Shown here piece by piece: positions 6,585 to 23,093 of a stretch of 64,000 nt of DNA. Under the pieces are notes generated by a model. That model was not told the origin of the DNA and did not search any database. It worked only from the letters and a program-made list of their open reading frames with translations. Position numbers and translations under genes: made by a program. Each line of letters starts with the position of its first letter. The first letter of the stretch is position 1. Location: NCBI GenBank assembly GCA_965204535.1, contig CBDBEV010000001.1, positions 544,001-608,000 of the forward strand, in the 5' to 3' direction. This DNA comes from a bacterium. GTDB taxonomy: Bacteria > UBA8248.

Positions 6585-9500
6585 CTACCACCGCTTCGAG
6601 CCGCGCAGCAGGAGGCCGCCTTCGGGTCTCCCGCCGCCGGCCTGTTCGGTGAGGCTCGCCTCGAGGCTCACCTCCGTGGCCGCCCCGGGCTTCCAGCGCG
6701 CGCCCGCGCGCCAGGTCTCCGCGTTCCCCGAGACCGCCACGCCCGTATAGGGCGTCAGCAGCCCCCGGGGGGCGTCCAGGCCCCAGGCCGCCTCGGCCTC
6801 GAAGCCCGCGGCGCCCGGCTCGAACGCACCGGCAGGCGCCAGGCCCGCCGCCTGCGACCAGAGCCGCTCCGCACCGCCGGCGGAGGCGCCCCAGGACGAG
6901 CCCGCCCGGAGCGAGAGCCCGCGCCCGTCCGAACCCGGCGCGTACCCCACCGAGGCGCTCACGCCCCATTCCTCATAACCGCCCTCGTTGTGGGCGATGA
7001 GGCCGCGCGCTCTCACCTCCGCCGTCAGGGCGCCCGAGGACCAGCGCAGGCCGCCGCCCGCCTCGACGCCCCCGCCCGTCTCCGCGTCGCCCGAATCGTT
7101 CCGGAACCCTATCTCCAGCGAGGGCGTCAGCACCGCATCGCCGAACTTGTACGAGCGCGAACCCTCGAGGGCGAGCCGCACCCGGCTCGTCCCCGCTTCG
7201 GTCTCCGCCAGGCCCGCCGCGGCGTCCGAGCGCGTGTCCGTCACGAGGACGTCCGCGCGGAGGGCGAGCTCGAACCCGCCCGGCCCGCGCGCGGGCAGGA
7301 GGACGCCGCGCGCGCCCCCCGCCGCCATTCCCATCTCGACGTCGGCGTCCATCGACTCAGCCCCCTCGGGCGTGAGCGTCATCCCGCCCGAGCCCAGGCC
7401 CACCACGCCCCAGAGCGAGAACGACCCGCTCACACGGTAGCGCGCGTAGGGGTAGACGCCCGTGAGCGCGCTCTCCACCTCGCCCGCGCCGCCCGCGCCG
7501 TCCGCCCTGTACGAGCCGTCGCCCGAACTCCGCGCGAGCGCCACGCCCACCAGCCAGCGCGCCCGCTCGTAGTCCGCGCCCAGCGCCGCCGTCGTCACGT
7601 CGCCCTCGAGCGTGAGGACGCCCTCCTTGCCGCTGAACGAGGAGCGCGCCCCGCGGCCCCACACCGACCAGCGCCCCGGGGAGGCGCCCGCGTCACCCGC
7701 CGAGGCCATGTGAAACGAACTGCCCAGGAGGAGTTCGCTCATCGAGACCTCGCGCACCGTGAGCGGCGCGTCTTCCCCTCGCTCGAGCCGGGCGCCGGCC
7801 TCGCGCCGGTAGCGTTCCGCCAGGCGCGCGAGGAGCGCCTCGCGGCCGGCGGAGCCGTCCAGGCCCAGTTCCTGCCCGCCCAGCACCATCCCCGCCGCCC
7901 CGGCGCCGCCCTCGATGCGCGCGCTCACCGCTTCCACCACGTTCTCCGCCGCCGTCCGCCCGAAGCGCGCGAGCCACGCCCCCGGCATCGGGTCGTCGTT
8001 CGCGATCACCCCCTTCGCCTCGCGGTGCATCGCGCGCAGGAACGCCCCCTGCGGGTTCGAGAGCTTGAGCACGAACGTCTCCCTGCCCTCGTCGACCGCG
8101 TCGTCGAGCAGCGCCACCGGGACCGTCTTCGCCGTCTCGCCCGCCGCGAAGACGAGCGTGCCCGACGCGGCCGTGTAGTCCGCCCCCGCCGCCGCCGTGC
8201 CGTCGGCCGTCGCGTAGTCCACCGAGACCTCGTGCGACGCCGCGCGGTTCAGCGTCACCGCGAAGTCGAGCGAGGCGTCCTTGCCTTCCTTCGCCCGGGC
8301 GTCCTCGACCCGGACCCGCACCGGGCCGCCGATCTTCGCGACCGGCGCGTTCGCGAGCGCCCGCCCGCCGGACGCGCACACCGCGCCGGCTTCGGCGCAG
8401 CCGCGGCCGTCCGCCAGCGTCACCGTCACGTCGCGCCACGCATCGGGTTTCACCTTCACCCGCCACAGGCCCGCCTCGACCCGCTCCACCTTCCGCGCCT
8501 GGCCGGCGCGCACCTTGAACGACGCCGGGGACGGCGCCACCGCGCCCCCGCCCAGCGCCTCGCTGAAGCGCACGCTCAGCCAGAACGCCGCCTCACCGTC
8601 ATGTTCGGCCGGGACCCCCTCGAACGCCGCCGTCAGCGGCGGACCCGCGCGCGCCACCGTCACCGCGTAAGTCCTCACCGTCCCGTCGGCCGCCGTGACC
8701 TCCACCGCGAGCGCGTTGTCGCCCACCGCGAGCGCGATCGCGCCGCTCGACCCGCCGCCCGCCACCGCGGACAGGTCCGTCCCCTTGCCGGCCTTCACCG
8801 CCGCGCCCGCGTCGTTCGCCGTCGGCGTCAGCCTGGCGTGGGTCGCGCCGTACGCCACCCGCGCGGTGTAGCTCGTGGTCGCCGGCGAGAACGCCGGGCT
8901 CAGCGCGAGCGCGCCGTCGAACGACGCGCCGTCGCCGCTCGTGCTCCCGGTCAAGGCGCGCAAGCTCGCGTCGGAGGACGCCTGCTGCTGCTGCGCCCCG
9001 TCGTCGGTAATCGTCACCTCCACCGAGGACGTGGCGCCCGCGCTCAGCCCCGAAGGCAGGCTCCCCAGCGCCACCGTGAACGTCTCGTCGTCCCCGTCCT
9101 CGTCGTCGTTCGTCGGGATCGCGCCCGTGGCCGACGTGAAGCCGGCGGGCAACGCGATCGACGCGAGCGTCCCGTGGTCCCCGTCCTCCGACGTGCCCCG
9201 GGTCACGGTGAGCGGGATCGTCACGTCCGCCGCCAGCGCCTTCGCCAGCACCGCCGTCACCGTGACCGGGGAGCCCTCCGCCACCGGGTTCGGGGCGGCC
9301 GACAGCGAGACCGCGACCGCGGCCGGCGCCCCGGTCACGTCGATGCGGTAGGTCTTCCGGCCGCTCGAACCGACCGCCATCACCCACAGCTCGGTCGTGC
9401 CGCCGTCCGGCGCGAGCGCCAGCGCGACGGCCGTGCCCGACGGCCGCACCCGCGCCGGGCGCGTGAACGTCGTCGCGCCCCAGCGCGAGCCCGCGAACAC

Positions 9501-12500
9501 GCTCGCCTCGCCGCCCCAGCGCGGCGCCAGCGTCACGCCCGCCGTCCCCGCCGGCACCGACGCCCGGTAGAACGTCACCCCCGGCGCGAACGCCGGGCTC
9601 AGCTCCACCGCCCCCGAACCGGCCGTGAGCGCGAGCCCGCACAGCGGTCCCGCCCCGGCCTCGCAGGCCGGCCGGGCCAGCACCTGCGTCTCCGGCTCCT
9701 TCGCCGCGTCGCCCCGCACCACCGTCAGGGTGTACTTCCGCACCGCCGTCACCTTCGGCACCGACACCTCGATGATGACCGGGTTCTCGCCCTCCTTCAG
9801 CGGCACGTCGACCGCCGGCGTGCCGGAGTCCACCCGCTTCCCGTTCACCTTCACCGCCGCCGACGCGTACTTCACCGCCGGCTTCACCGTCACCCGCTCC
9901 ACCGCGAGCGGCACCCGCACCTCGTAGCTGCTGCTCTTCGCCTCGAGCGCCACCTCGCCCTGCGCCACCCGCTGCGCCGGGTCCGGCGAGGTCACCGTCA
10001 GCGCGCGCAGGTCCAGGCCCCCCGGCCCCGGCAGCGCCAGGTTCGGCGCCGTCAGCCGCGGCGCGTAGGAAGACGCGCGAAGCTCCAGGCGCGGCCCGCC
10101 CCCCCGCAGCACGCACAGCTTCGCCGTCGCCTCCCGCCCGCCGGGCGGGATCTCCACCCTCCCATACCCGGTGATGGGCGAGGGCAGGGTCCGGGCGGCG
10201 GCGGTCCCGCCGCACGCGCCCCACGACGCCGCCCCGACGCCATTGAGGCCGAGGTGCACCGTCATCCCCGGCGCGCTCGGCCGGTCGAGCCGCACGGTCA
10301 CCGTCACCGTGCCGCCCGCCGCCACGGCCTGCGGGTCCGCCTCCACGACGAGCGCCGTCGGCGGGTTCGGCCCCTGCACCCGCACCTTGACGCCCGCCGC
10401 CGTCAGCGCCGGGTCGTGGGTCCCCGCCGTCACCGTCATCGTCCGCCCCGCGCCCGCCGCGGTCGCGCACAGCTTCACCGTCGCCTCCCGCTCGCCGGCG
10501 GCAACCATGTCGGCCGTGCCGTGCTCCCAGGCGCAGTCCGGGCCCCAGCGCGCCGCGCCGCCGTCGCCCGCGGTGTCGAACCACACATCCATCGCCTTCA
10601 TCGCCGGGGCGTCCAGCCGCGCCGTCACCGTCACCGCGCCGCCATGCGCGAGGGCGACGGGGTCCACGCTCAGCGTCAGCGACGCCGGCGGCGCCGGCGC
10701 CCGCGGCGTGCCCGCGCCGGTGGACCAGCGAACGGGGGTCTCATGGGGATAGGCTAACGGACGCACCCGCACGTCGTAGGCCGTGCCGTTGGCCAGCCCC
10801 CCGATCGTGTACGCCGTGCCGGTAGCGTACAAGGTCTGGGGCACGCCATTGACAATCCGCGCGCGCCCGGGCGCCACCCAGCCGGTCGAGGGGTCGCCCG
10901 GCGTCGTCGCGTCCGCGTCCGGCGCCGAGGACACCTTCCACTGCACCTCGTAGCTATGGTTCGGCCCCCACGGCCTGTTCCACGTCAGCGCCAGCGACCC
11001 GTCGCCCGTCGCCACCGACAGCACCAGGCCCGCGCTCGGGCCGGCCGAGACCGGGGTCCTGCCCGGGGCGTCGTCGTCGGCGATCCTCACCGTCACCGAG
11101 TTCGGCGTGCCCGCCGACACCGACGAGGGCAGCGTGCCCAGCGACACCGTGAAGGTCTCGTCCTCGGTGTCGTCGTCCTGCGCCGTGGTGAGCGTGCCCG
11201 TGCCCGTCGTGGACCCGCCGGCAATCGCGATCGACGCGAGCGTGCCGATGTCGCCGGACTCCGCGCTGCCCAGGCTCACCGTCACCGGGATGGAGACGGC
11301 GCCCGTCAGCGCCGCCGACAGCGTCGCCGTCACGGTCACCGAAGACCCCTCCGCCACCGGGTTCGGCGCCGCCGACAGCGAGACCGCCGGGGTCGTGGCG
11401 GGCGGGGTCGTGCCCGAGGCCGCCCGCGTCACCGTCACGGTGTAGGCGACCTTCGTCGTGCCGTCCTGCGCCGTCACCTCGACCTTGATGGCGTTCGCGC
11501 CCTCCGAGAGCGCGATGGCCGTGCTCTCCGTGCCGCTGGTCACCGCCGAGAGGTTCGTCCCCTTGCCGACCTTGATCGAGGCGCCCGTGTGCGCCTTCGT
11601 CGGCGTCAGCTTCACGTGCGTGACGCCGTTGGCCACCGAGGCGGTGTAGGCGGTCGTGGACGCCGAGAAGGTCGACGGGCTCAGCGTCAGCGCAGTGAAG
11701 GTCGAGCCGTCCGTGCTGCTCTTCGCCGTCAGGGCGCTCAGGTTGGCGTTGGAGGACTGGGTGGACTTCTTGAGCACCACCAGGTAGTTGGTGCTCTTGC
11801 GCGCGTTGTTGTCTCGGATCTCCACCGACACCCAGGTATCCCCGCTGGCGGCCAGGGTCACCGTCTTCGACGTGCCCGAGGAGGCGAGCTTGGACCCCGC
11901 CTGGGTCAGGATGCTGTCGTAGTCCGGCGTCGTCGAGGCGACCTTCGTCTCGATGAAGTGGCCCTCGATCCAGGTGGGGGTGACCGAGGCGCTGGTGGCC
12001 GTGGGCGCCACGGTCCCGGTGTACATCGTCGTGCTCGTGGCGAAGGCCGGGCTCAGCGTGACCGCGCTGCCGCCCACCGTCAGCGACAGCCCGACCAGGC
12101 TGTCCGTGTTCGCCTCGTCGTCCCGGATGGTCACCGTCACCGAGTTCGGCGTGCCCGCCGACACCGACGAGGGCAGCGGCGTCCCCAGCGACACCGTGAA
12201 GGTCTCGTGGTCGGCGTCGGTGTCCTGCGCCGTGGTGATGGTGGCGCCGCCGAAGGTGAGCCCCCCGAGGACGGTGATGCTGGTCAGCGTGCCGATGTCG
12301 CCCGCCTCCGCCGAGCCCCGCGTCACCGTCACCGGGATGACCACGTCGCTGCCGAGCGCCGCGGACAGCGTCGCCACGATGGTCGCCGACGAGCCCTCCG
12401 CCACCACGTTGCTCTGGTCGACCGACAGCGAGACCGTCGGGGTCGCGGCGGGCGGGGTCGTGCCCGAGGCCGCCCGGGTCACGGTCACGGTATAGGTCCG

Positions 12501-14969
12501 CTTCGTCGTGCCGTCCTCGGCCGTGACCTCGACCTTGATCGCGTTCGCGCCCTCCGAGAGCGCGATGGCCGAGGTCTCCGTGCCGCTCGTCACCGCGGTC
12601 AGGCTCGTGCCCTTGCCGACCTTGATGGAGGCGCCGGTGTGCGCCTTCGTCGGCGTCAGCTTCACGTGCGTGATACTGTTCGCCACCGAGGCGGTGTACG
12701 AGGTCGTCGTCGCCGAGAAGGTCGACGGGGTCAGCGCGAGCGCCGAGAACGTGCCCGCCGCGCTCGCCGCGCTCTTCACCGTCAGACCGCTCAGCTCCGA
12801 GTTGGTGGATTGGGTGGCCCCCTTGACCGCGCCGTTGACGCGGATCTTCAACTCGACCGAATTGGTTCTCCAGGCGGTGCCGGCACGGCCGTGGCGCGTG
12901 TCCCCGATGCTCCAGCCCGATGCGCTGCCCGAATCCTCGTTGTTGGTCCTCGTGGTCCGCAGCGACCCGGTGGTGGCGCCGCTCCTGTAGACGACCACGA
13001 AATACGAGGTGCTCGCGGCGAGCGACGTGTTCGACGGCGCGGCAAAGGCGACCGCGCCCGCCCCGACCGTCGACGGGACCGTGAGGCTCGCGAGCTTCGA
13101 GTCCGGAGCGCCGGCGCCGGTCGCCGACCACAGCTCCGCCCGCAGGTTCGCAGGCGTGCCCACCGCGGCGGCGAAGTCGATCTCGAGGCTCGCCAGCGTG
13201 TAGCCGGCGGTGGCGCTTCCGGTCGTGAACTTCTGGGCGACCGGATTGCTGCCGACCGTGACGGTGGGCGTGAACGTGGTCTGCCCGAGATTGCTCACCA
13301 GCGCGTTGGCGGAGGCGGGCGCGGCGGTCGAGGTGTCGGCGATGGTTATCGTCGTCTTCTCGCTCGCGCGGACCACCGTGTAGGGCTCGCCGGTGACTTT
13401 CTGCAGGAACCAGGTCGCGGTCTCGGCGCCCTCCGTCGTCCCGTCCGCCACCGCGGCCAGCGTGAAGGTCGCGGTCGTGGCGTTGGCCGGCAGCGCCAGC
13501 ATCCGCGAGCCCGCGCGCCCGGTCAGCCCGCTGAAGGTGTAGTCCTCGGGATTGTTGGACGAGCTCGGGGTCGTCGCCAGGACGGCGACCCTGCTGGCCG
13601 TGGTCAGCGCGGGCGAGATGTTCACCGTCAGCGTGACGCTCGCGCCCTCGTTGACGCTGTAGGTCGTCGAGGCGAAGCTCACCTGCGGGGTCGTCGCGGC
13701 CGCGCAGGACGCGGCGATTTTCAGGGAGACCGGCGTGCCGGCGGTCCAGCCCGGGTTGGTGCTGGTAAGAATCTGGCTGGGAGCAATACCGATTGAATAC
13801 CCGGTCGTGCCGACGCAGAACTTCAGCGCCCGGAGCGCGGCATTCGGGGCAGCGTTGAAACTCACCCCCAGACCAAGGCCGGAGGAGGCCGCTATTTCGG
13901 TGAAATGATATGCGGTGCCGCCAACCGTGAAGCTGTTGTCCGTCAGCCGCGTATCGCAGTTGGTCTTGGACGTGCACCCGATCACATTGTTACCGCTCGC
14001 CGGCGTCAGCGTCGCCGACCAGGGCGCGGTGGTAGTCGAGGACGCCCGGGTCACGGTGACGGTATAGGTCCGCTTCGTCGTGCCGTCCTCGGCCGTCACC
14101 TCGACCTTGATGGCGTTGGCGCCCGCGTCCAGGGCGATGGCGCCGCTCTCCGAGCCGCTGGCCACCGCGGTCAGGCTCGTGCCCTTGCCGACCTTGACCG
14201 TGGCCTTGCCGGTGGCCTCCACCGTCGGCGTCAGCTTCACGTGCGTGACGCCGTTGGCCACCGAGGCGGTGTAGGCGAGGGTCGCCTTGGCGAAGGTCGA
14301 CGGGCTCAGCGCGAGCGCCGAGAACGACGCCGTCGCGCTCGTCGCGCTCTTCGCCGTCAGGGCGCTCAGGTTCGCGTTGGTGGACAGCGCGGCCCCCCTG
14401 GCCGAGCCGTTGACGCGGATCAGCCGGGTCTCGGTCCAGGTCGACCAGCCGCTCGGGGGGTTGCCGCCGCTGCCCGCGCCGAAACGGCTCGTGTCGGCGA
14501 CGCTCCAGCCGGTCGCGGCGCCGCTGTCCTCGTTGTCGCTGGCCGTGTTCAGGATCTGGAATTGCATGTTGGTGGCGGGGGACCGGCTCGCGGCGCCGCC
14601 GATGACGAAGTAGTAGGTGGTGTTCGCCGCGAGCCGGGTGCCCGCCGGCGCCGCGAAGACGATGTTGGCGGGGGTGGCGCCGCTGGCCGTGATGGTGGCC
14701 GGCACCGTCAGGTCCGCGAGCTTCACGCCCGGGTTGCCGGTGACGTCCGACCAGAGCTGCGCCCGGAGCTCGCCCGGTGCGGCCTCGGGCTGGTTGGTGC
14801 GCGCCTCGATGCTGGTCAGCGTGTAGCCGGCCGTGTGGCTCCCGGTGGTGAACGCCTGGGCGTGCCACCGGTTGGCCCACACCCGGCCCCCGCCGGCGGC
14901 CGCGGTCTGCCCGACGGTGCTCACCAGCACGTCGGCGGAGGCGGGCGCGGCGGCGAACGGGGAGAACAT
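6585..14969 (-). CDS. Giant autotransporter-type surface adhesin (cadherin-like beta-sandwich repeats, Calx-beta, FN3, C-terminal beta-barrel); start uncertain
   Basis: Repeated 'NLSALT...N.IKVEVTAEDGTT..TYTVTVTRA' units; Calx-beta motif VDYATADGTA.AG.DY...DD..DEG.ETF; WLARFGRT linker; beta-barrel ending in RW; signal-like RRLALLPVLALLLG lies just upstream of the Met. Confidence 0.88.
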   Translation of the reverse strand: MFSPFAAAPASADVLVSTVGQTAAAGGGRVWANRWHAQAFTTGSHTAGYTLTSIEARTNQPEAAPGELRAQLWSDVTGNPGVKLADLTVPATITASGATPANIVFAAPAGTRLAANTTYYFVIGGAASRSPATNMQFQILNTASDNEDSGAATGWSVADTSRFGAGSGGNPPSGWSTWTETRLIRVNGSARGAALSTNANLSALTAKSATSATASFSALALSPSTFAKATLAYTASVANGVTHVKLTPTVEATGKATVKVGKGTSLTAVASGSESGAIALDAGANAIKVEVTAEDGTTKRTYTVTVTRASSTTTAPWSATLTPASGNNVIGCTSKTNCDTRLTDNSFTVGGTAYHFTEIAASSGLGLGVSFNAAPNAALRALKFCVGTTGYSIGIAPSQILTSTNPGWTAGTPVSLKIAASCAAATTPQVSFASTTYSVNEGASVTLTVNISPALTTASRVAVLATTPSSSNNPEDYTFSGLTGRAGSRMLALPANATTATFTLAAVADGTTEGAETATWFLQKVTGEPYTVVRASEKTTITIADTSTAAPASANALVSNLGQTTFTPTVTVGSNPVAQKFTTGSATAGYTLASLEIDFAAAVGTPANLRAELWSATGAGAPDSKLASLTVPSTVGAGAVAFAAPSNTSLAASTSYFVVVYRSGATTGSLRTTRTNNEDSGSASGWSIGDTRHGRAGTAWRTNSVELKIRVNGAVKGATQSTNSELSGLTVKSAASAAGTFSALALTPSTFSATTTSYTASVANSITHVKLTPTKAHTGASIKVGKGTSLTAVTSGTETSAIALSEGANAIKVEVTAEDGTTKRTYTVTVTRAASGTTPPAATPTVSLSVDQSNVVAEGSSATIVATLSAALGSDVVIPVTVTRGSAEAGDIGTLTSITVLGGLTFGGATITTAQDTDADHETFTVSLGTPLPSSVSAGTPNSVTVTIRDDEANTDSLVGLSLTVGGSAVTLSPAFATSTTMYTGTVAPTATSASVTPTWIEGHFIETKVASTTPDYDSILTQAGSKLASSGTSKTVTLAASGDTWVSVEIRDNNARKSTNYLVVLKKSTQSSNANLSALTAKSSTDGSTFTALTLSPSTFSASTTAYTASVANGVTHVKLTPTKAHTGASIKVGKGTNLSAVTSGTESTAIALSEGANAIKVEVTAQDGTTKVAYTVTVTRAASGTTPPATTPAVSLSAAPNPVAEGSSVTVTATLSAALTGAVSIPVTVSLGSAESGDIGTLASIAIAGGSTTGTGTLTTAQDDDTEDETFTVSLGTLPSSVSAGTPNSVTVRIADDDAPGRTPVSAGPSAGLVLSVATGDGSLALTWNRPWGPNHSYEVQWKVSSAPDADATTPGDPSTGWVAPGRARIVNGVPQTLYATGTAYTIGGLANGTAYDVRVRPLAYPHETPVRWSTGAGTPRAPAPPASLTLSVDPVALAHGGAVTVTARLDAPAMKAMDVWFDTAGDGGAARWGPDCAWEHGTADMVAAGEREATVKLCATAAGAGRTMTVTAGTHDPALTAAGVKVRVQGPNPPTALVVEADPQAVAAGGTVTVTVRLDRPSAPGMTVHLGLNGVGAASWGACGGTAAARTLPSPITGYGRVEIPPGGREATAKLCVLRGGGPRLELRASSYAPRLTAPNLALPGPGGLDLRALTVTSPDPAQRVAQGEVALEAKSSSYEVRVPLAVERVTVKPAVKYASAAVKVNGKRVDSGTPAVDVPLKEGENPVIIEVSVPKVTAVRKYTLTVVRGDAAKEPETQVLARPACEAGAGPLCGLALTAGSGAVELSPAFAPGVTFYRASVPAGTAGVTLAPRWGGEASVFAGSRWGATTFTRPARVRPSGTAVALALAPDGGTTELWVMAVGSSGRKTYRIDVTGAPAAVAVSLSAAPNPVAEGSPVTVTAVLAKALAADVTIPLTVTRGTSEDGDHGTLASIALPAGFTSATGAIPTNDDEDGDDETFTVALGSLPSGLSAGATSSVEVTITDDGAQQQQASSDASLRALTGSTSGDGASFDGALALSPAFSPATTSYTARVAYGATHARLTPTANDAGAAVKAGKGTDLSAVAGGGSSGAIALAVGDNALAVEVTAADGTVRTYAVTVARAGPPLTAAFEGVPAEHDGEAAFWLSVRFSEALGGGAVAPSPASFKVRAGQARKVERVEAGLWRVKVKPDAWRDVTVTLADGRGCAEAGAVCASGGRALANAPVAKIGGPVRVRVEDARAKEGKDASLDFAVTLNRAASHEVSVDYATADGTAAAGADYTAASGTLVFAAGETAKTVPVALLDDAVDEGRETFVLKLSNPQGAFLRAMHREAKGVIANDDPMPGAWLARFGRTAAENVVEAVSARIEGGAGAAGMVLGGQELGLDGSAGREALLARLAERYRREAGARLERGEDAPLTVREVSMSELLLGSSFHMASAGDAGASPGRWSVWGRGARSSFSGKEGVLTLEGDVTTAALGADYERARWLVGVALARSSGDGSYRADGAGGAGEVESALTGVYPYARYRVSGSFSLWGVVGLGSGGMTLTPEGAESMDADVEMGMAAGGARGVLLPARGPGGFELALRADVLVTDTRSDAAAGLAETEAGTSRVRLALEGSRSYKFGDAVLTPSLEIGFRNDSGDAETGGGVEAGGGLRWSSGALTAEVRARGLIAHNEGGYEEWGVSASVGYAPGSDGRGLSLRAGSSWGASAGGAERLWSQAAGLAPAGAFEPGAAGFEAEAAWGLDAPRGLLTPYTGVAVSGNAETWRAGARWKPGAATEVSLEASLTEQAGGGRPEGGLLLRGSKRW

Positions 14970-15141
14970 CCCGAGCAGCAGCGCGAGGACGGGGAGCAGC
15001 GCGAGGCGGCGCCACGCGGACGCGGCCCGGGACCGACGGAGCGGCGGCGCGGCCGGAAAGACAGCGCGCCGGAGAGGTCAGGCGGGAGGACGGGACGCGC
15101 GAGCGGGCCACGGGCTCAGACCCCCTCAGACGCGGACGCAA

Positions 15142-15197
15142 CTCGGCTCTCGGCTCTCGGCTCTCGGCTCTCGGCTCTCGGCTCTCGGCTCTCGGCT
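15142..15197. repeat. Heptanucleotide simple sequence repeat (CTCGGCT)x8
   Basis: Eight perfect tandem units read directly, between the adhesin 5' end and the IS1111 end. Confidence 0.97.
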
Positions 15198-15239
15198 CTT
15201 CTCTAATCGGGACGAGCAAGTCAAGTTCCTCTGCCCTGG

Positions 15240-15470
15240 TTTTTCCGGATCTTTCCGCCTTGGCTTTAGACGATGCTCCATGGGGGTCTCGCTTCTCTAC
15301 GTGATCGGCTCCCGGTCCGGGGCCGTCAACAGGATGGGGTCGGAGAACGAGGTGGAACAATCTCTCATACGCCCTCGCACCGTCACCGACGGAGCGGAAC
15401 TGAGCCGACAGCGAACTCACCTCGTCCCTCGTCCCCACGGGAGCATCCTCTGCCATAGCGGAAGCTACTG
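15240..15470 (-). ncRNA. Putative bridge/seek RNA of the IS1111 element
   Basis: Stem ACGAGGTG/CACCTCGT (15347-15354 / 15418-15425) encloses TCGGCTC and TATGAGAGA, matching the target flanks; a second region carries CCCCATC and TAGAGA, matching the IS ends. RNA ends are approximate. Confidence 0.7.
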
Positions 15471-15506
15471 TAATTTTCGGATTCTTCTCCTTTTGGATTC
15501 CCGATG

Positions 15507-16547
15507 TCAGGAGGCTACGTCATCCACGCCGTCGCGTTTCCAGCGGAACTCACTGCCGTCCATCCATATGCGGTGCATAATGACGCCGAGCCGGCGGGCG
15601 AGCGCAACCTTCGCGCGCGCCTTGCCGCGACGCTTCGCCACACCCATCGCCCAGGCTTTCAGCCACGACCACCGCGTCGTGCGCCCGAGCAAGGCGTTGG
15701 CGGCTTCGTAGAGCGCCGCGCGCATCATCGCGTCGCCGCACTTGGAGATTCTTCCCGTTCGGTCGACCTCTCCGGATTGCCATTTGCGAGGCACAAGCCC
15801 GAAGTGCGCGCCCACCGAGCGCGAGCGCGCAAAACGCGACGGCACGTCGACGCTCGCCCGGAAGGTCAGCGCCGTCACCGGACCCACGCCGGGGACCGTC
15901 ATCAGGCGACGGCAGACCGGGTCGACGCGCACCGCCTCCAGCATCATCCTGTGCAGCCGGACGTATTCCGCCAGCAACGCAGAGCGAGCCCGCAGCATCG
16001 GCGCCACCAGGCGCGCCAACTCCGGGCGATCCGCGACCAGACCCCCTACCCGCGCCTCCAGCCCGCGGCGGGAGACCTTGCCCATCTTCAGTCCGAAGTT
16101 GCGCAACGTGCCCCGGATGTGGGCCTCGGCGTCGCACAACTGCTTCAGCATGAACCTGCGGTTGGCGAGGAGCATGCGTTTCTCCTGGCTCGACACCGTC
16201 TTCACGTGCACCGGGCGAATCAGGTTCGCGCGAACCAGCTGGGCGATCCCGCGCGCGTCGTCGCGGTCGCTCTTGTTCACCGTGGCCGAGAGCACCGCCT
16301 TCAACTGCCGCGTCTCGGCGCAAACCACCGGGAGCCCGGCCTCGGCCAGGCCGTCATGGAGCCACTGCGACAGCGGCCCCGCCTCGAGGCAGATGCGCTT
16401 CACGCCGAAGTCCAGCCCGGTGAAGAACGCCGCGAGGGCCGCGGGTTCGCTCGCGACCTTCGCCTCCCGGACGATCCCGCCGTCCACGTCCACCACGCAC
16501 ACACTCGTCCACTCCAACGACACGTCGAGTCCTGCAAAGTAGTTCAT
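15507..16547 (-). CDS. IS110-family recombinase/transposase
   Basis: DEDD RuvC-like motifs GLDVS, LEAG, KSDRDDA; PGVG..TA, QSG, KCGD, VALARRL; AGGAGG RBS before ATG 16547. Confidence 0.95.
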   Translation of the reverse strand: MNYFAGLDVSLEWTSVCVVDVDGGIVREAKVASEPAALAAFFTGLDFGVKRICLEAGPLSQWLHDGLAEAGLPVVCAETRQLKAVLSATVNKSDRDDARGIAQLVRANLIRPVHVKTVSSQEKRMLLANRRFMLKQLCDAEAHIRGTLRNFGLKMGKVSRRGLEARVGGLVADRPELARLVAPMLRARSALLAEYVRLHRMMLEAVRVDPVCRRLMTVPGVGPVTALTFRASVDVPSRFARSRSVGAHFGLVPRKWQSGEVDRTGRISKCGDAMMRAALYEAANALLGRTTRWSWLKAWAMGVAKRRGKARAKVALARRLGVIMHRIWMDGSEFRWKRDGVDDVAS

Positions 16548-16944
16548 GGCTGCTCCTCCTGCGGGCGAGAGACACCGGAGCCATCCCGGCCTCGCCTCGA
16601 TCATATGACAGAGGAACATCCGCTACACGCGGTAGTTCGAGGGCCAACCCGATTACCCCATCTCTTATATTATGGTTATGAGATGATGCCACGCCTGCAA
16701 TTGTCAAGTCCATTACCCATGCCCCCTGATAAGTCCCGGCGTTTACCGGGAAGCGCGAACGCCGGAACGCCGGGTTCGGTTTGTCCTCCTCCGCCCGAAG
16801 CCGTTTCAGCCTGCTGCCGGCATCCTGCCATGGTTCATGATCCCCAACTCCTCGCCACCCTCCGCCGGCGGGACGACCCGCCGGGAGGGGGGCCGCGATG
16901 AAGCGGACCGGGAGGGACCGACTTCGCTTCCCCCGGTTCCGCCC

Positions 16945-17185
16945 CTACCACCGCATCGAGCCCCTGAGCGCCACGCCGTGGACGGAAGCGCCCCCGTCCC
17001 TCTCGCGCAGGTCGCCCTCGAGGCTCATGGTGAGGGACTCGGCGAGCCGGAAGCGCCCGCCCGCGCGGTACGTCTCCCCGCTCCCGGTGAACGTGAAGCC
17101 GGTGTAGGGCGTCAGGAGTCCGCCCCAGGCGTCGAGGCCCCAGCCCGCCTCGGCGTCGAAGCCCGCCACGGGGTCGAACGCTCCT
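16945..17185 (-). pseudogene. Orphan C-terminal fragment of a second autotransporter
   Basis: AFDPVAGFDAEAGWGLDAWGGLLTPYTG...LRGSMRW aligns with the adhesin C-terminus AFEPGAAGFEAEAAWGLDAPRGLLTPYTG...LRGSKRW. Confidence 0.8.
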
Positions 17186-17527
17186 CCCCCTTTGATGCCT
17201 CCCTTCACAAACTGGTGATGGTCCGGGCCGGTGGTTCCGCGAACCGCCGCTAATCGTTATTATCAGAAGAGAAAGGGCCGACACCCCTCAAAGGGCTGCT
17301 TTGGTAGGGGTTGCTGGGGAACTGCTGCGACACGATTCCCGAGGCGCAGGCCAAGTCGGGGTGCCGGCTGCTTTCATAAAGCGCGAGCAGGGGCTGCCCG
17401 TTGTTCCCCCTCCCGGCTCGAGGACTCAAACTCACAACCGGGAGGGGTACTATTTTGCTCTCACGAAGGAAGCAACCAACGGACAACCCCCTTTTCGCTC
17501 TACTTGAGATTTGCTGCCCGCCCGGCC

Positions 17528-17573: not shown

Positions 17574-20279
17574 CTACTGCTCCAGGTACGTCCCGAAGCC
17601 GCCGATCAGGCTGTGGGTCACGTCGTCGGCCGTGTCGTCCGCCGTCCCCATGTCGAGGGTCCCGCTCACCCCGAAGGTGCCGATCACCGCGGTCGGGTAC
17701 TTCTTGGCAGCGTCGGCGTTCTCCGCCATCGCCTCGGAGAACCGGCCATGCCAGAACCCGTTCATCGGGTACTCCGCAGAGCTGTCGGTGGGGTCTACCG
17801 TCGGCGTGCCCATCCGGGTGTCGTAATACGTGAAACTCCGGCTGGTTGCGGAGTTCACCGCACCGTACGACAGGATGACCTCGCTCAGCTCCCCCGTCAG
17901 CCTTTCGCCGCCGGAGACGATCTCGTAGATCCTGCCCTCGACGGTGCCCAGTTCGGTAGCCGTGCCGAACTTCGCCGTCAGCTCCGCCTTGGCGTCGAAC
18001 GGCTGGACCGCCTCCTTCGCCCCGGTCATCCCGTGAAGCCCCGCGGCCGAACCCCGGTACGTCGCATTGCCGGTCAGAGCCGTTATGACACCATCGGCAA
18101 TCGTCGAACCGAAGGCGTTGCCGGACGCGAATGCGCCGAGGCGTTCGTCTTGGTTGTTCGCGGTGGAGCCGCCCAGATCCAACCAGTACCCGAAGACCAT
18201 GTAGTCGGGATCGCCCGCCTCCGGCACCGCAGCCGCAGAGCCGGTGACACGCCAGCCGCTGCCGAGCGACGTGATCGTCGCGGTTGCCGCCGCCCCGGTG
18301 CTCGTGTACGAGCAGTCGGCCGGCGCCGTGCAAGCGAAGGTGACGCCGGTGCCGCTGTAGGTGACCCCGTCCTTGGTGAATTTGCTCCCCGCGAGGGTCG
18401 TGATGGTGCCCGCGGTGCTGAGGTCGAACGTCCCCGACACCGTCCCCGAGGAAGCCTGAACGCCGCTGATGTTGCCCGCCTTCACCGCCGCCTTGCGCTT
18501 GGACGGATCGTAGTCGGTGTAGATGTGGACGGCCCGCGTGCCCTGGGTCAGCTCGACGCCGGTGAAGCGGCCGAGCGTCGGCAGGTCCCGCTGCGTCGCC
18601 TGTGCCGTCGTGACCGCCGGGTCCGGCGTCCTCAGGTGCTCGGCAGCGTACTTGCCGAAGCGGTACACGCGGTCCTTGCCGATCTTGTGCTCGATCCGGG
18701 CTCCATAGGCGTTGTTGCCGATCTGGTCGTTGTCGTTGGTGTTGTACTGCCAGAGGCCGTCAACCGAGTTGTCCCGAGTGCCCGTGCCGTCGGTATTCGG
18801 GGTAAGGGCCTTGGCCGCGCCGACGGTGACGTGGGTATCACGTTCCTCGTCACCGGCGTCCTCGATCAGGTTACGCACCAATGTGATGCGCGCCTTCTTC
18901 TCGGCGTCGGCCAGGCCCTGTCCGCTCGCGACCTTGAACAGTTCGAGCGCGTACATCGTGGACGCGGCGACCGCTGCCGTCGCCGCCGCCTTCGCTTCCA
19001 TGTACCTGGCATTCGCGCCGTCATCGCCGGTGTCCTTGGCCATGGCGGTGCGCTGCTGCATCTGCGCCTTGTCACGCTCCGCACGCGCAGTCTCGGCCGT
19101 CACGTCGTCGGCCTTCGAGGCCATGTACGCGGCCTCCGCGGCCCTCGCGGCAGTCTCGGCCGCCGCCGCCGCCGCTTCGGCAGCCGTCGCCGCCGCCTCC
19201 GCTTCCGTGGCCTTCTTGTCGGCCCCGGCGTAGTCCGTCCGCGCCATCTTGGCCTTGTTCGCGGCTTCACGCGCCTTCGTTGCCTCCGCCTGGGCCATAT
19301 CCGCCTTGGCGCGCGCCGAGTCGGCGTGCTCCATGGCGGCGTCCTTGGCCACCTTCGCCGCTTCCTGCGCCTGCTCGATGCGCAGCCGGTTGAGACCGGC
19401 AACCGTCACGCCGGCCTGACGGGCCAGTTCCTCCGCGTCCGCGAGCTTCATCTCCGCCTCGGCCTTCTTGCCCTCGGCGGCCTCCTTCTCGGCCTCCGCG
19501 TCGGCCGACGTCGTGTCCTCCTGCGCATTCTCGGAAGCCGTCTCGGCAGCCATCGCCGCCGCCTCGGCAGCCGTCGCCGCCTCGTCGGCGTCCATGTACG
19601 CCTCCGAATCGGCGCCCAGCATCTCCTTGACCTTGTTCGCCGCCGTGCGCGCCTTCGTCGCCGCCGTGCGCGCAGCCATCGCCGCTGTCGATGCCGCGGT
19701 CTTGGCCTCGGCCAGCTTCCCGGCCTCCTCGGCCGCGGCCGTCACATGACCGGCGAACGTCATGACGGCCGTGTTCGCGGCCATCGCCTTCGCCTTCTCG
19801 GCTTCGGCCTCCGCCTTCTTGGTTTCGGCGATGGCCTGCTGCCGCTTGGCCTCGGCAACGCCCGCTTCCGTCGCCTCCGCCGCCGCCGCGGCGTCGGACG
19901 CCGCCTTGGCCGCCTCGTAGGCCGCCTTGGCCGCCTCGTAGGCCGCCTTGGCGTCAGCCAGGCGATCCATCGCACGCGTGTAGTTGGGAACGTCGTTGTC
20001 CCGCTTGTCCTCAAGGTCGTCGAACGCGCTCTGCGCCGCATCGCGCTCTGCCATCGCCGCATCGCGCGCAGTCATCGCCGCCGCGGCCGCCGCGGCCGCC
20101 GCTTGCCGGGCCGCGCTCAACTGCTCCGCCAGGGTCGGGTCCGGGTCAACGACCGGCGGATCCGGGTCCGGCGCAGCAGCACCACCGCCGCCACCGCCGC
20201 AGCCCGCCAGCGTCAGCGCGAAGACCGCCGCCAGCGCGAAAGCGTAAAACTTGTTAATATACTTGTCTTTGAACATCAT
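17574..20279 (-). CDS. Surface lipoprotein: Ala-rich coiled-coil stalk plus TbpB-like C-terminal beta-barrel, copy A
   Basis: Lipobox LAGC followed by poly-Gly; ~400-aa Ala/Glu/Lys helical region; YMVFGYWL, ATYRGSAAG, AELTAKFG, GGFG motifs. Confidence 0.8.
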   Translation of the reverse strand: MMFKDKYINKFYAFALAAVFALTLAGCGGGGGGAAAPDPDPPVVDPDPTLAEQLSAARQAAAAAAAAAMTARDAAMAERDAAQSAFDDLEDKRDNDVPNYTRAMDRLADAKAAYEAAKAAYEAAKAASDAAAAAEATEAGVAEAKRQQAIAETKKAEAEAEKAKAMAANTAVMTFAGHVTAAAEEAGKLAEAKTAASTAAMAARTAATKARTAANKVKEMLGADSEAYMDADEAATAAEAAAMAAETASENAQEDTTSADAEAEKEAAEGKKAEAEMKLADAEELARQAGVTVAGLNRLRIEQAQEAAKVAKDAAMEHADSARAKADMAQAEATKAREAANKAKMARTDYAGADKKATEAEAAATAAEAAAAAAETAARAAEAAYMASKADDVTAETARAERDKAQMQQRTAMAKDTGDDGANARYMEAKAAATAAVAASTMYALELFKVASGQGLADAEKKARITLVRNLIEDAGDEERDTHVTVGAAKALTPNTDGTGTRDNSVDGLWQYNTNDNDQIGNNAYGARIEHKIGKDRVYRFGKYAAEHLRTPDPAVTTAQATQRDLPTLGRFTGVELTQGTRAVHIYTDYDPSKRKAAVKAGNISGVQASSGTVSGTFDLSTAGTITTLAGSKFTKDGVTYSGTGVTFACTAPADCSYTSTGAAATATITSLGSGWRVTGSAAAVPEAGDPDYMVFGYWLDLGGSTANNQDERLGAFASGNAFGSTIADGVITALTGNATYRGSAAGLHGMTGAKEAVQPFDAKAELTAKFGTATELGTVEGRIYEIVSGGERLTGELSEVILSYGAVNSATSRSFTYYDTRMGTPTVDPTDSSAEYPMNGFWHGRFSEAMAENADAAKKYPTAVIGTFGVSGTLDMGTADDTADDVTHSLIGGFGTYLEQ

Positions 20280-20387: not shown

Positions 20388-23093
20388 CTACTGCTCCAGG
20401 TGCGTCCCGAAGGCGCCGATCAGGCTGTGGGTCACGTCGTCGGCCGTGTCGTCCGCCGTCCCCATGTCGAGGGTCCCGCTCACCCCGAAGGTGCCGATCA
20501 CCGCGGTCGGGTACTTCTTGGCAGCGTCGGCGTTCTCCGCCATCGCCTCGGAGAACCGGCCATGCCAGAACCCGTTCATCGGGTACTCCGCAGAGCTGTC
20601 GGTGGGGTCTACCGTCGGCGTGCCCATCCGGGTGTCGTAATACGTGAAACTCCGGCTGGTTGCGGAGTTCACCGCACCGTACGACAGGATGACCTCGCTC
20701 AGCTCCCCCGTCAGCCTTTCGCCGCCGGAGACGATCTCGTAGATCCTGCCCTCGACGGTGCCCAGTTCGGTAGCCGTGCCGAACTTCGCCGTCAGCTCCG
20801 CCTTGGCGTCGAACGGCTGGACCGCCTCCTTCGCCCCGGTCATCCCGTGAAGCCCCGCGGCCGAACCCCGGTACGTCGCATTGCCGGTCAGAGCCGTTAT
20901 GACACCATCGGCAATCGTCGAACCGAAGGCGTTGCCGGACGCGAATGCGCCGAGGCGTTCGTCTTGGTTGTTCGCGGTGGAGCCGCCCAGATCCAACCAG
21001 TACCCGAAGACCATGTAGTCGGGATCGCCCGCCTCCGGCACCGCAGCCGCAGAGCCGGTGACACGCCAGCCGCTGCCGAGCGACGTGATCGTCGCGGTTG
21101 CCGCCGCCCCGGTGCTCGTGTACGAGCAGTCGGCCGGCGCCGTGCAAGCGAAGGTGACGCCGGTGCCGCTGTAGGTGACCCCGTCCTTGGTGAATTTGCT
21201 CCCCGCGAGGGTCGTGATGGTGCCCGCGGTGCTGAGGTCGAACGTCCCCGACACCGTCCCCGAGGAAGCCTGAACGCCGCTGATGTTGCCCGCCTTCACC
21301 GCCGCCTTGCGCTTGGACGGATCGTAGTCGGTGTAGATGTGGACGGCCCGCGTGCCCTGGGTCAGCTCGACGCCGGTGAAGCGGCCGAGCGTCGGCAGGT
21401 CCCGCTGCGTCGCCTGTGCCGTCGTGACCGCCGGGTCCGGCGTCCTCAGGTGCTCGGCAGCGTACTTGCCGAAGCGGTACACGCGGTCCTTGCCGATCTT
21501 GTGCTCGATCCGGGCTCCATAGGCGTTGTTGCCGATCTGGTCGTTGTCGTTGGTGTTGTACTGCCAGAGGCCGTCAACCGAGTTGTCCCGAGTGCCCGTG
21601 CCGTCGGTATTCGGGGTAAGGGCCTTGGCCGCGCCGACGGTGACGTGGGTATCACGTTCCTCGTCACCGGCGTCCTCGATCAGGTTACGCACCAATGTGA
21701 TGCGCGCCTTCTTCTCGGCGTCGGCCAGGCCCTGTCCGCTCGCGACCTTGAACAGTTCGAGCGCGTACATCGTGGACGCGGCGACCGCTGCCGTCGCCGC
21801 CGCCTTCGCTTCCATGTACCTGGCATTCGCGCCGTCATCGCCGGTGTCCTTGGCCATGGCGGTGCGCTGCTGCATCTGCGCCTTGTCACGCTCCGCACGC
21901 GCAGTCTCGGCCGTCACGTCGTCGGCCTTCGAGGCCATGTACGCGGCCTCCGCGGCCCTCGCGGCAGTCTCGGCCGCCGCCGCCGCCGCTTCGGCAGCCG
22001 TCGCCGCCGCCTCCGCTTCCGTGGCCTTCTTGTCGGCCCCGGCGTAGTCCGTCCGCGCCATCTTGGCCTTGTTCGCGGCTTCACGCGCCTTCGTTGCCTC
22101 CGCCTGGGCCATATCCGCCTTGGCGCGCGCCGAGTCGGCGTGCTCCATGGCGGCGTCCTTGGCCACCTTCGCCGCTTCCTGCGCCTGCTCGATGCGCAGC
22201 CGGTTGAGACCGGCAACCGTCACGCCGGCCTGACGGGCCAGTTCCTCCGCGTCCGCGAGCTTCATCTCCGCCTCGGCCTTCTTGCCCTCGGCGGCCTCCT
22301 TCTCGGCCTCCGCGTCGGCCGACGTCGTGTCCTCCTGCGCATTCTCGGAAGCCGTCTCGGCAGCCATCGCCGCCGCCTCGGCAGCCGTCGCCGCCTCGTC
22401 GGCGTCCATGTACGCCTCCGAATCGGCGCCCAGCATCTCCTTGACCTTGTTCGCCGCCGTGCGCGCCTTCGTCGCCGCCGTGCGCGCAGCCATCGCCGCT
22501 GTCGATGCCGCGGTCTTGGCCTCGGCCAGCTTCCCGGCCTCCTCGGCCGCGGCCGTCACATGACCGGCGAACGTCATGACGGCCGTGTTCGCGGCCATCG
22601 CCTTCGCCTTCTCGGCTTCGGCCTCCGCCTTCTTGGTTTCGGCGATGGCCTGCTGCCGCTTGGCCTCGGCAACGCCCGCTTCCGTCGCCTCCGCCGCCGC
22701 CGCGGCGTCGGACGCCGCCTTGGCCGCCTCGTAGGCCGCCTTGGCCGCCTCGTAGGCCGCCTTGGCGTCAGCCAGGCGATCCATCGCACGCGTGTAGTTG
22801 GGAACGTCGTTGTCCCGCTTGTCCTCAAGGTCGTCGAACGCGCTCTGCGCCGCATCGCGCTCTGCCATCGCCGCATCGCGCGCAGTCATCGCCGCCGCGG
22901 CCGCCGCGGCCGCCGCTTGCCGGGCCGCGCTCAACTGCTCCGCCAGGGTCGGGTCCGGGTCAACGACCGGCGGATCCGGGTCCGGCGCAGCAGCACCACC
23001 GCCGCCACCGCCGCAGCCCGCCAGCGTCAGCGCGAAGACCGCCGCCAGCGCGAAAGCGTAAAACTTGTTAATATACTTGTCTTTGAACATCAT
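20388..23093 (-). CDS. Surface lipoprotein, copy B (tandem duplicate, offset 2814 bp)
   Basis: Same 901-aa sequence as copy A except the C-terminal AFGTH vs GFGTY. Confidence 0.8.
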   Translation of the reverse strand: MMFKDKYINKFYAFALAAVFALTLAGCGGGGGGAAAPDPDPPVVDPDPTLAEQLSAARQAAAAAAAAAMTARDAAMAERDAAQSAFDDLEDKRDNDVPNYTRAMDRLADAKAAYEAAKAAYEAAKAASDAAAAAEATEAGVAEAKRQQAIAETKKAEAEAEKAKAMAANTAVMTFAGHVTAAAEEAGKLAEAKTAASTAAMAARTAATKARTAANKVKEMLGADSEAYMDADEAATAAEAAAMAAETASENAQEDTTSADAEAEKEAAEGKKAEAEMKLADAEELARQAGVTVAGLNRLRIEQAQEAAKVAKDAAMEHADSARAKADMAQAEATKAREAANKAKMARTDYAGADKKATEAEAAATAAEAAAAAAETAARAAEAAYMASKADDVTAETARAERDKAQMQQRTAMAKDTGDDGANARYMEAKAAATAAVAASTMYALELFKVASGQGLADAEKKARITLVRNLIEDAGDEERDTHVTVGAAKALTPNTDGTGTRDNSVDGLWQYNTNDNDQIGNNAYGARIEHKIGKDRVYRFGKYAAEHLRTPDPAVTTAQATQRDLPTLGRFTGVELTQGTRAVHIYTDYDPSKRKAAVKAGNISGVQASSGTVSGTFDLSTAGTITTLAGSKFTKDGVTYSGTGVTFACTAPADCSYTSTGAAATATITSLGSGWRVTGSAAAVPEAGDPDYMVFGYWLDLGGSTANNQDERLGAFASGNAFGSTIADGVITALTGNATYRGSAAGLHGMTGAKEAVQPFDAKAELTAKFGTATELGTVEGRIYEIVSGGERLTGELSEVILSYGAVNSATSRSFTYYDTRMGTPTVDPTDSSAEYPMNGFWHGRFSEAMAENADAAKKYPTAVIGTFGVSGTLDMGTADDTADDVTHSLIGAFGTHLEQ

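Follow-up and report, generated by a model that had tools for sequence, protein, structure and literature searches.

The stretch of DNA analysed here (the window, 64,000 nucleotides) carries on its minus strand a large adhesin-like gene whose likely leader contains an insertion sequence (IS). The likely leader start (16662..16713, minus strand) has its ATG at 16713, and the IS (15200..16661, minus strand; 1462 bp, or 1464 bp with a single AG core) follows after leader codon 17, in sense orientation with the adhesin gene. The right flank of this IS copy is a heptamer array of 8.3 units (15142..15199, minus strand). Beyond it are a 52-base segment (15031..15082, minus strand), which is absent from an intact paralogue and shifts the leader out of the signal-peptide frame, and the body of the adhesin-like surface protein (6585..14969, minus strand), whose first ATG falls inside a signal-peptide-like stretch. 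The protein is called adhesin-like because it contains cadherin-like, Calx-beta, and choice-of-anchor R domains; a Pfam search of it returned no autotransporter domain. Elsewhere in the window, two tandem genes for 901-aa lipoprotein-like proteins with no Pfam match (17574-20279 and 20388-23093) differ at 2 of 2706 bases, reflecting either recent amplification or an assembly artefact. Positions 17270-17480 hold one of 14 matches to a non-coding repeat of 170 to 220 bases, which has no Rfam match at gathering score.

The recombinase gene of the IS (15507..16547, minus strand) encodes a 346-aa protein of the IS110-family DEDD type. It matches PF01548 and PF02371, scores 231.6 bits against NF033542 (cut-off of 140), and has residues D8, E55, D94, and D97 along with S258 within a GL-P----SG motif; both the DEDD RuvC-like domain and the Transposase_20 domain with a catalytic serine, by which the IS110 superfamily is recognized, are present. 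Copies of the AG core flank the element on the left (16662..16663, minus strand) and on the right (15198..15199, minus strand). Among homologues, both ends could be called, with AG at both junctions, at 83 of 144 loci, under a search pattern that itself demanded AG; the flanks beyond AG are variable. Sub-terminal inverted repeats, TAATCGGG on the left (16648..16655, minus strand) and its counterpart on the right (15204..15211, minus strand), have arms that co-change among homologues. Their length of 8 bp is at the short end of the range for IS1111 elements, and the gap between them at the predicted junction is 12 bp (6 + 2 for the core + 4). The non-coding stretch downstream of the recombinase gene measures ~307 bp against 114 bp upstream, which is the IS1111-type arrangement. 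The element is an intact IS1111-type IS with a predicted downstream bridge/seekRNA.

Four full copies of the IS are present in the genome to which the window belongs (G000), all identical inside the IS and free of indels, in addition to one IS 5' fragment and one diverged right-end remnant. The closest recombinase homologues (88% to 97% amino acid identity) come from records titled Nitrospinota, Nitrospinaceae, Deltaproteobacteria, or bacterium MAGs, and more distant ones (50% to 80%) are mostly from Alphaproteobacteria. No copy carrying this element's guide was found in the viral contigs searched. The IS 5' fragment, on contig C2 (L169, C2:480683-480889), has a left flank that fits the left guide of the sibling L010 and not that of this element, indicating that a differently programmed sibling was once active. 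The right-end remnant, which comes from a sibling (L173:1800-2050, C2:374338-374544), has no transposase beside it and sits at the head of one of the 170- to 220-base repeats; its target loop, with guides like those of L001, is intact, 32 bases are gone from its donor loop, and its flank fits its own right guide. A further bare IS right end lies at C2:1581077. The solo ssr9 RNAs described for ISPpu9 (PMC12288879) are a possible parallel to such bare right ends.

Near the right end of the IS is the predicted -35 box (TTGACT; 15219..15224, minus strand) of a would-be circle-junction promoter. A TTGAY box stands 17 to 18 bp from the hexamer spanning the predicted circle junction at 77 of 83 homologue loci, and the predicted -10 hexamer of the present element has three of six consensus bases. 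Junction promoters are known in this family, and the conserved spacing agrees with one here, although the promoter is a prediction. A sigma-70 scan of 14900-17400 returned one weak site (15510-15481) and no outward promoter at the IS right end. Since the right flank replaces the final T of the predicted junction -10 hexamer, activation of the adhesin gene from within the IS appears unlikely.

The predicted bridge/seekRNA spans approximately 15270..15466 (minus strand) and comprises a 5' hairpin, a target loop, and a donor multi-loop. An alignment of 16 sequences shows a conserved scaffold with two freely varying stretches, which are the target guides. The preliminary description of this locus had placed four guide segments in the region (TCGGCTC at 15408-15402, TATGAGAGA at 15369-15361, CCCCATC at 15339-15333, and TAGAGA at 15299-15294), the first two inside a stem (15425-15418 and 15354-15347). 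All of these are found where it put them, and their matches are real, while the extents of the guides needed revision. The right target guide is longer, CTGTCGGCTC (15402..15411, minus strand), and in the right flank its predicted pairing partner is the top strand. The left target guide is GTATGAGAG (15362..15370, minus strand) rather than TATGAGAGA, whose final A belongs to the scaffold and is invariant in 16 of 16 aligned RNAs; its predicted partner is the bottom strand across left flank and core. Both donor matches are likewise borne out and extend further: the right donor guide, ACCCCATC (15333..15340, minus strand), complements the core G and the IS left end, and the left donor guide, TAGAGAAG (15292..15299, minus strand), equals the IS right end plus core (15205-15198). 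The order in the RNA is thus right target, left target, right donor, left donor, with the top-strand complement (15411-15402) standing 5' of the bottom-strand match (15370-15362), as in IS1111 elements.

Folding, which the preliminary description had proposed as a check, gave a divided answer. Positions 15200-15506 fold better than shuffled sequences (z = -3.10; 1 of 100 shuffles was as good), and in the consensus fold of the 16 sequences, where 7 of 36 pairs show two-sided change, both target guides are free of pairing; they lie in an internal loop, and the stem noted earlier (5' arm 15418..15425, 3' arm 15347..15354, minus strand) closes it. The right donor guide is also unpaired in the consensus, and the left donor guide lies in a hairpin loop. 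The single-sequence fold, in contrast, partly pairs the two target guides with each other, and 7.2 kcal/mol would be needed to open all four guides. Each of the four segments originally described occurs by itself in some dinucleotide shuffles of 15230-15506 (441, 498, 909, and 1823 per 20,000), the full right guide CTGTCGGCTC (15411-15402) was found in 1 of 20,000 shuffles, and all four segments occurred jointly in none of 20,000. Rfam returned nothing in the window at gathering score.

The target guides covary with the flanks among homologues, which bears out the reading of the locus as an IS1111-type element with a legible guide RNA downstream of its recombinase gene. A transposase match was present at 144 of the 145 loci given, both ends at 83, and parsed guides at 98; the 63 loci with both ends and both guides reduce to 37 distinct guide pairs in 12 guide families, and four mis-parsed rows (L044, L046, L073, and L076) were kept in the covariation counts. 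Across the 37 guide pairs, the left guide agrees with its own flank at 4.19 of 7 positions compared with 2.00 when permuted (0 of 20,000 permutations as high). For the right guide, taking the best of registers 7 to 10 and granting the permutations identical freedom, the values are 5.05 of 6 and 3.04 (0 of 10,000). It reaches at least 5 of 6 in 29 of the 37 pairs, at register 8 (19 pairs), 9 (7), or 10 (3). A fixed 9-base register gives merely 3.89 of 9 because registers differ among homologues. The distance from the core at which the right guide pairs is 8, 9, or 10 bases among the homologues L001 to L141, and it varies even between siblings that have no indel between the anchors. Kin share guides, and the test was therefore repeated with one member per guide family: single draws from the 12 families averaged 10.99 of 13 against 6.76, and 200 of 200 draws exceeded all permutations. 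The covariation foreseen in the preliminary description is thus found across 12 guide families.

Among 16 insertions of close siblings (at least 87% identity) with seven guide sets, the element's own guide fits strictly best in 13; for L007 and L008 the guides of another sibling fit better, and for L011 there is a tie. This natural series, seven guide sets on scaffolds that are 87% to 100% identical in protein, is a clean example of guide reprogramming and would be useful for testing IS1111-type bridge recombinases and their off-target rules. On the donor side, the guides are largely conserved: the left donor guide matches the IS right end in 63 of 66 cases, including both of two variant ends, and the right donor guide matches the IS left end in 52 of 66, with an exact match in none of five variant ends. 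More distant relatives (L012-L014, L025-L029, and L086-L100) aim at other conserved targets, and by eye we take their flanks to resemble IS5-type transposase, resolvase, and tRNA genes.

Three of the four IS copies occupy one common site. It lies in a spacer of a multicopy conjugative-type element, behind a hairpin and T-run and ~80 bases beyond the ssb stop codon. The preliminary description proposed to test whether other copies have flanks like those of the window copy; what these three share is the right flank AGCCGACAG, which the right guide complements throughout. It matches 10 of 10 bases there and 9 of 10 at the window copy, whose flank departs from AGCCGACAG at position +7, and the bases by which the right guide extends beyond TCGGCTC fit the spacer flank and not the heptamer. 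The genome holds 11 paralogues of the spacer (3 filled and 8 empty), with ssb adjoining all 11; a TrwC relaxase lies no more than 6 kb away at 4 of them and within ~35 kb at 9. The spacer was found in 12 of 22 congeneric genomes searched, often in multiple copies, and in G002 it contains the uninterrupted target ATGAGAGAGCCGACAG. Comparison of the filled sites with the eight empty ones and with G002 reveals no target duplication and a fixed site and orientation. A sibling with different guides (L009) has inserted in the same spacer ~65 bases off and on the opposite strand. Insertions of 1.2 to 1.4 kb also split the spacer in G006, G011, and G022, which may make it a hot spot for insertions in general.

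Once the IS had been deleted in silico, guide matching placed the four filled sites first to fourth among the 476,502 AG cores of the genome, a ranking somewhat inflated by the choice of its 9-base register after the four sites had been viewed; its guide letters were taken from the RNA, and 19 of 29 homologues use register 8. The filled sites have one mismatch each and 0, 1, 1, and 1 wobbles, the AG-core sites ranked next show two mismatches or else three wobbles, and each of the eight empty spacer paralogues has two to three mismatches compared with one in the filled sites. The occupied sites are precisely the four in the genome that suit the guides best. By raw count over 15 positions (one mismatch, one wobble), two of the three spacer sites are level with the adhesin site, which is therefore a good site and not a poor one; this counts against the spacer as the preferred target. 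In favour of the spacer, the heptamer's mismatch is at position +7, which is paired in 83% of 29 well-matched homologues, and the spacer's is at position -6, which is paired in 22% of 37 homologue guide pairs.

Around one empty spacer site (L172) are genes for TrwC, SSB, a YspA-type SLOG protein, AbiEi/AbiEii, a DruA-like protein, and several transposases. Two 14.8-kb regions (C1:183065-197838 and C2:2956119-2970891, the latter touching the end of C2) are 99.9% identical, and the two empty spacer paralogues inside them may be one locus assembled twice, judging from this identity. A weak Rfam match to ctRNA at the ssb hairpin in L174 was below threshold and was rejected.

The preliminary description had placed the heptamer array upstream of adhesin genes, but it more likely lies inside the 5' reading frame of the gene. 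Arrays of this heptamer occur twice in the genome, once filled (the window) and once empty. The empty one belongs to a paralogue (C2:26385) that is open for 2992 aa from the same ATG across a 16-unit array and is in frame solely at 7, 10, 13, 16, or 19 units. At the window locus, in-silico removal of the IS leaves at most 440 aa from the upstream ATG at repeat numbers 5 to 17, with or without the extra AG, and there is no in-frame ATG, GTG, or TTG ahead of the adhesin's hydrophobic stretch. The upstream ATG is the presumed start, and downstream starts exist. Without the IS, the 8 units hold the paralogue's ON frame up to the 52-base segment, which would happen by chance in one case in three. 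This segment is unique to the locus within the genome and may contain a one-base assembly error; since it shifts the frame, precise excision of the IS would not restore the gene. The gene upstream of the window adhesin is truncated relative to the paralogous locus, so the window locus looks like a decaying duplicate.

Besides the window locus, heptamer arrays are present in the likely leaders of large adhesin-like genes at C2:17025-17101, C2:31092-31231, C2:1574089-1574235, C1:217921-218004, and C2:26224-26335. The last of these belongs to the paralogue; at the other four, a TCATCCG array follows a ribosome-binding site and ATG. Every third repeat number puts each of the five in frame, and as assembled three are on and two are off. 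Given that the arrays stand within what is probably leader reading frame, these adhesins likely switch natively by slippage of their repeats, a known device, and the array-bearing genes are likely contingency loci in this uncultured lineage. This gene family is perhaps of greater interest than the IS finding.

We consider it highly probable that the bridge/seekRNA is aimed at the ssb spacer and that the window copy is a single insertion into an adhesin leader whose sequence mimics that target almost perfectly. With three of four copies in a repeated mobile element, the adhesin landing is likely a one-off look-alike insertion that acts as no switch. By analogy with IS621, ISEc11, and their relatives, the element would leave as a circle, its joined ends would create a promoter, and the donor loop would read the joined ends while the target loop read both strands of the target. 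Riding in the intergenic spacer of a mobile element would allow it to spread at little harm. The adhesin copy, interrupted and out of frame, would be silenced for good, and the adhesin family's own switch would be heptamer slippage.

The preliminary description read the locus differently, with the element programmed for the first AGAGCCG unit upstream of adhesin genes and acting as their on/off switch. Seven bases of the right guide do complement one repeat unit, and the -6 base of the left guide fits the adhesin flank and not the spacer. The heptamer itself is nevertheless a poor target for the guides: inner repeat units have at least five mismatches, and the first unit of the empty paralogue has three mismatches and two wobbles. 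The quality of the window site as a target comes from its unique left flank and from one AG that is missing in the paralogue. The notion that such arrays are a general target fares no better, as the genome's other array is both empty and a poor match, none of the 22 congeneric genomes searched has three heptamer units in a row or an orthologue of the adhesin leader with an array, and the four TCATCCG arrays at adhesin-like genes are without a copy. With three copies at a non-adhesin site that the right guide matches better, it is exceedingly unlikely that the element is programmed for the array and uses the spacer sites secondarily. The switch can be considered apart from the target, as an IS492-like toggle in which a sense-oriented copy is read through, precisely excised, and re-inserted. 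The orientation of the copy 17 codons into the likely leader, the rank of its site among the four best guide matches of the genome, the ON frame that 8 units would keep as far as the 52-base segment, and the reported dependence of IS621 excision on read-through transcription (PMC13626964) are all consistent with such a toggle. It founders on the frame, which is never full at 5 to 17 repeats and has no start codon before the hydrophobic stretch, and on the location of the other three copies. Published work adds further difficulties, since the rejoined target of ISEc11 is given as undetected (PMC11187229), IS621 is reported to excise less well than it inserts (PMC13626964), and copy-out has been claimed for another IS110 element (preprint 10.1101/2025.10.25.684509). 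We regard this toggle as very unlikely. We give equally little credence to a two-tier version in which slippage at the head of the array creates the target, the IS enters, the adhesin promoter transcribes it, and the IS excises, so that it gates the adhesin; this would hold only if the 52-base frameshift arose late or in assembly. An adhesin switch of this kind would be an RNA-programmed form of phase variation, but the present data do not show one.

A separate question concerns the entry of the window copy, on which alone the following alternative bears. The pre-insertion site may have resembled the paralogue, two bases shorter, with insertion in a shifted register duplicating AG and the paralogue remaining a live target. 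The paralogue is indeed one AG short of the IS-free window sequence, its site has one mismatch and one wobble at a 7-base right register, registers 8, 9, and 10 all occur among homologues, and off-target insertions of IS621 with small added stretches are on record (PMC11208160). The eight empty spacer paralogues and the G002 site, however, have the length expected without duplication, the best 7-register site of the genome is empty, ISEc11 is described as adding no bases (PMC11187229), and slippage of AG in the allele accounts equally well for the two extra bases; we therefore judge entry in a shifted register to be rather unlikely. The simplest alternative, that the guide matches arose by chance in a G+C-rich, purine-biased region, draws on the single short matches, which occur in 2% to 9% of shuffles, and on the pairing of parts of the target guides in the single-sequence fold. 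Its probability is practically nil, given the absence of all four segments together from the shuffles, the fixed positions of the guides in a conserved fold, and above all the covariation across 12 families, which refutes it. The case shows that bridge guides are legible in raw sequence.

The recombinase of this element resembles that of a published group. By a by-eye count, 57 of 75 Tnp-domain residues agree with a protein to which the names ISAzs32, ISMex9, ISMno22, and ISMpo4 are assigned (PMC11208160, Supplementary Table 1 row 899), which is not necessarily ISAzs32 itself. ISAzs32 is one of six elements for which both target and donor guides were predicted (Durrant et al. 2024, PMC11208160, Fig. 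6d, with the legend to Extended Data Fig. 10c). The present element, compared with this group at the protein level, probably has different guides and a different target, and the figures and Supplementary Table 5 of that paper may already describe the core and guides of the clade. It shares with many IS1111 members a donor multi-loop, in which their donor guides are located according to PMC11208160. A literature search, largely of open-access work and mostly at title level, returned nothing on this element and no IS110-family switch at a repeat-bearing adhesin.

In its architecture the element resembles ISEc11, ISKpn4, ISPst6, and ISPa11 (Siddiquee et al. 2024, PMC11187229), with a downstream non-coding region, sub-terminal repeats, and the GL-P----SG motif. 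The seekRNA elements of that study likewise place the top-strand complement 5' of the bottom-strand match, cause no target duplication, have guides naturally reprogrammed between close relatives, and use repeated or mobile-element targets. The inverted repeats of 8 bp are shorter than the 11 to 13 bp usual there and fall within the 7- to 17-bp range of PMC11208160, and the junction gap of 12 bp compares with 7 + 3 in PMC11187229, a difference of counting or of sub-group. The target, a spacer in a TrwC/ssb element that we recognize from sequence only, contrasts with the attC or REP targets in PMC11187229. With IS621 the element has in common a two-base core, a 7 + 2 left guide, separate target and donor loops, rG:dT tolerance, and insertion at sites with one or two mismatches (PMC11208160, PMC13626964). 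IS621 belongs to the IS110 group and differs in having its RNA upstream of the gene, a reversed guide order, a CT core, and a right guide of 4 to 7 bases compared with 8 to 10 here. For IS621, empty sites were found at each of its three genomic copies, and an upstream promoter raised its excision ~100-fold (PMC13626964).

The placement of an IS110-family element in a transcribed surface-structure gene recalls IS492 at epsG of Pseudoalteromonas atlantica. Excision of IS492 at epsG reportedly restores a working gene; unlike that case, the adhesin here stays out of frame, and most IS copies are elsewhere. The heptamer array at Haemophilus hmw1A is said to act on transcription, whereas the arrays here follow a ribosome-binding site and ATG and so would switch by frameshift. 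Heptamer arrays 5' of adhesin-like genes are otherwise a likeness to simple sequence repeat contingency loci such as hmw1A (PMC8262952, PMC2651432, PMC12721329). The RNA-guided mechanism of these IS has been known since 2024, and the present element adds one more member to those that use it.
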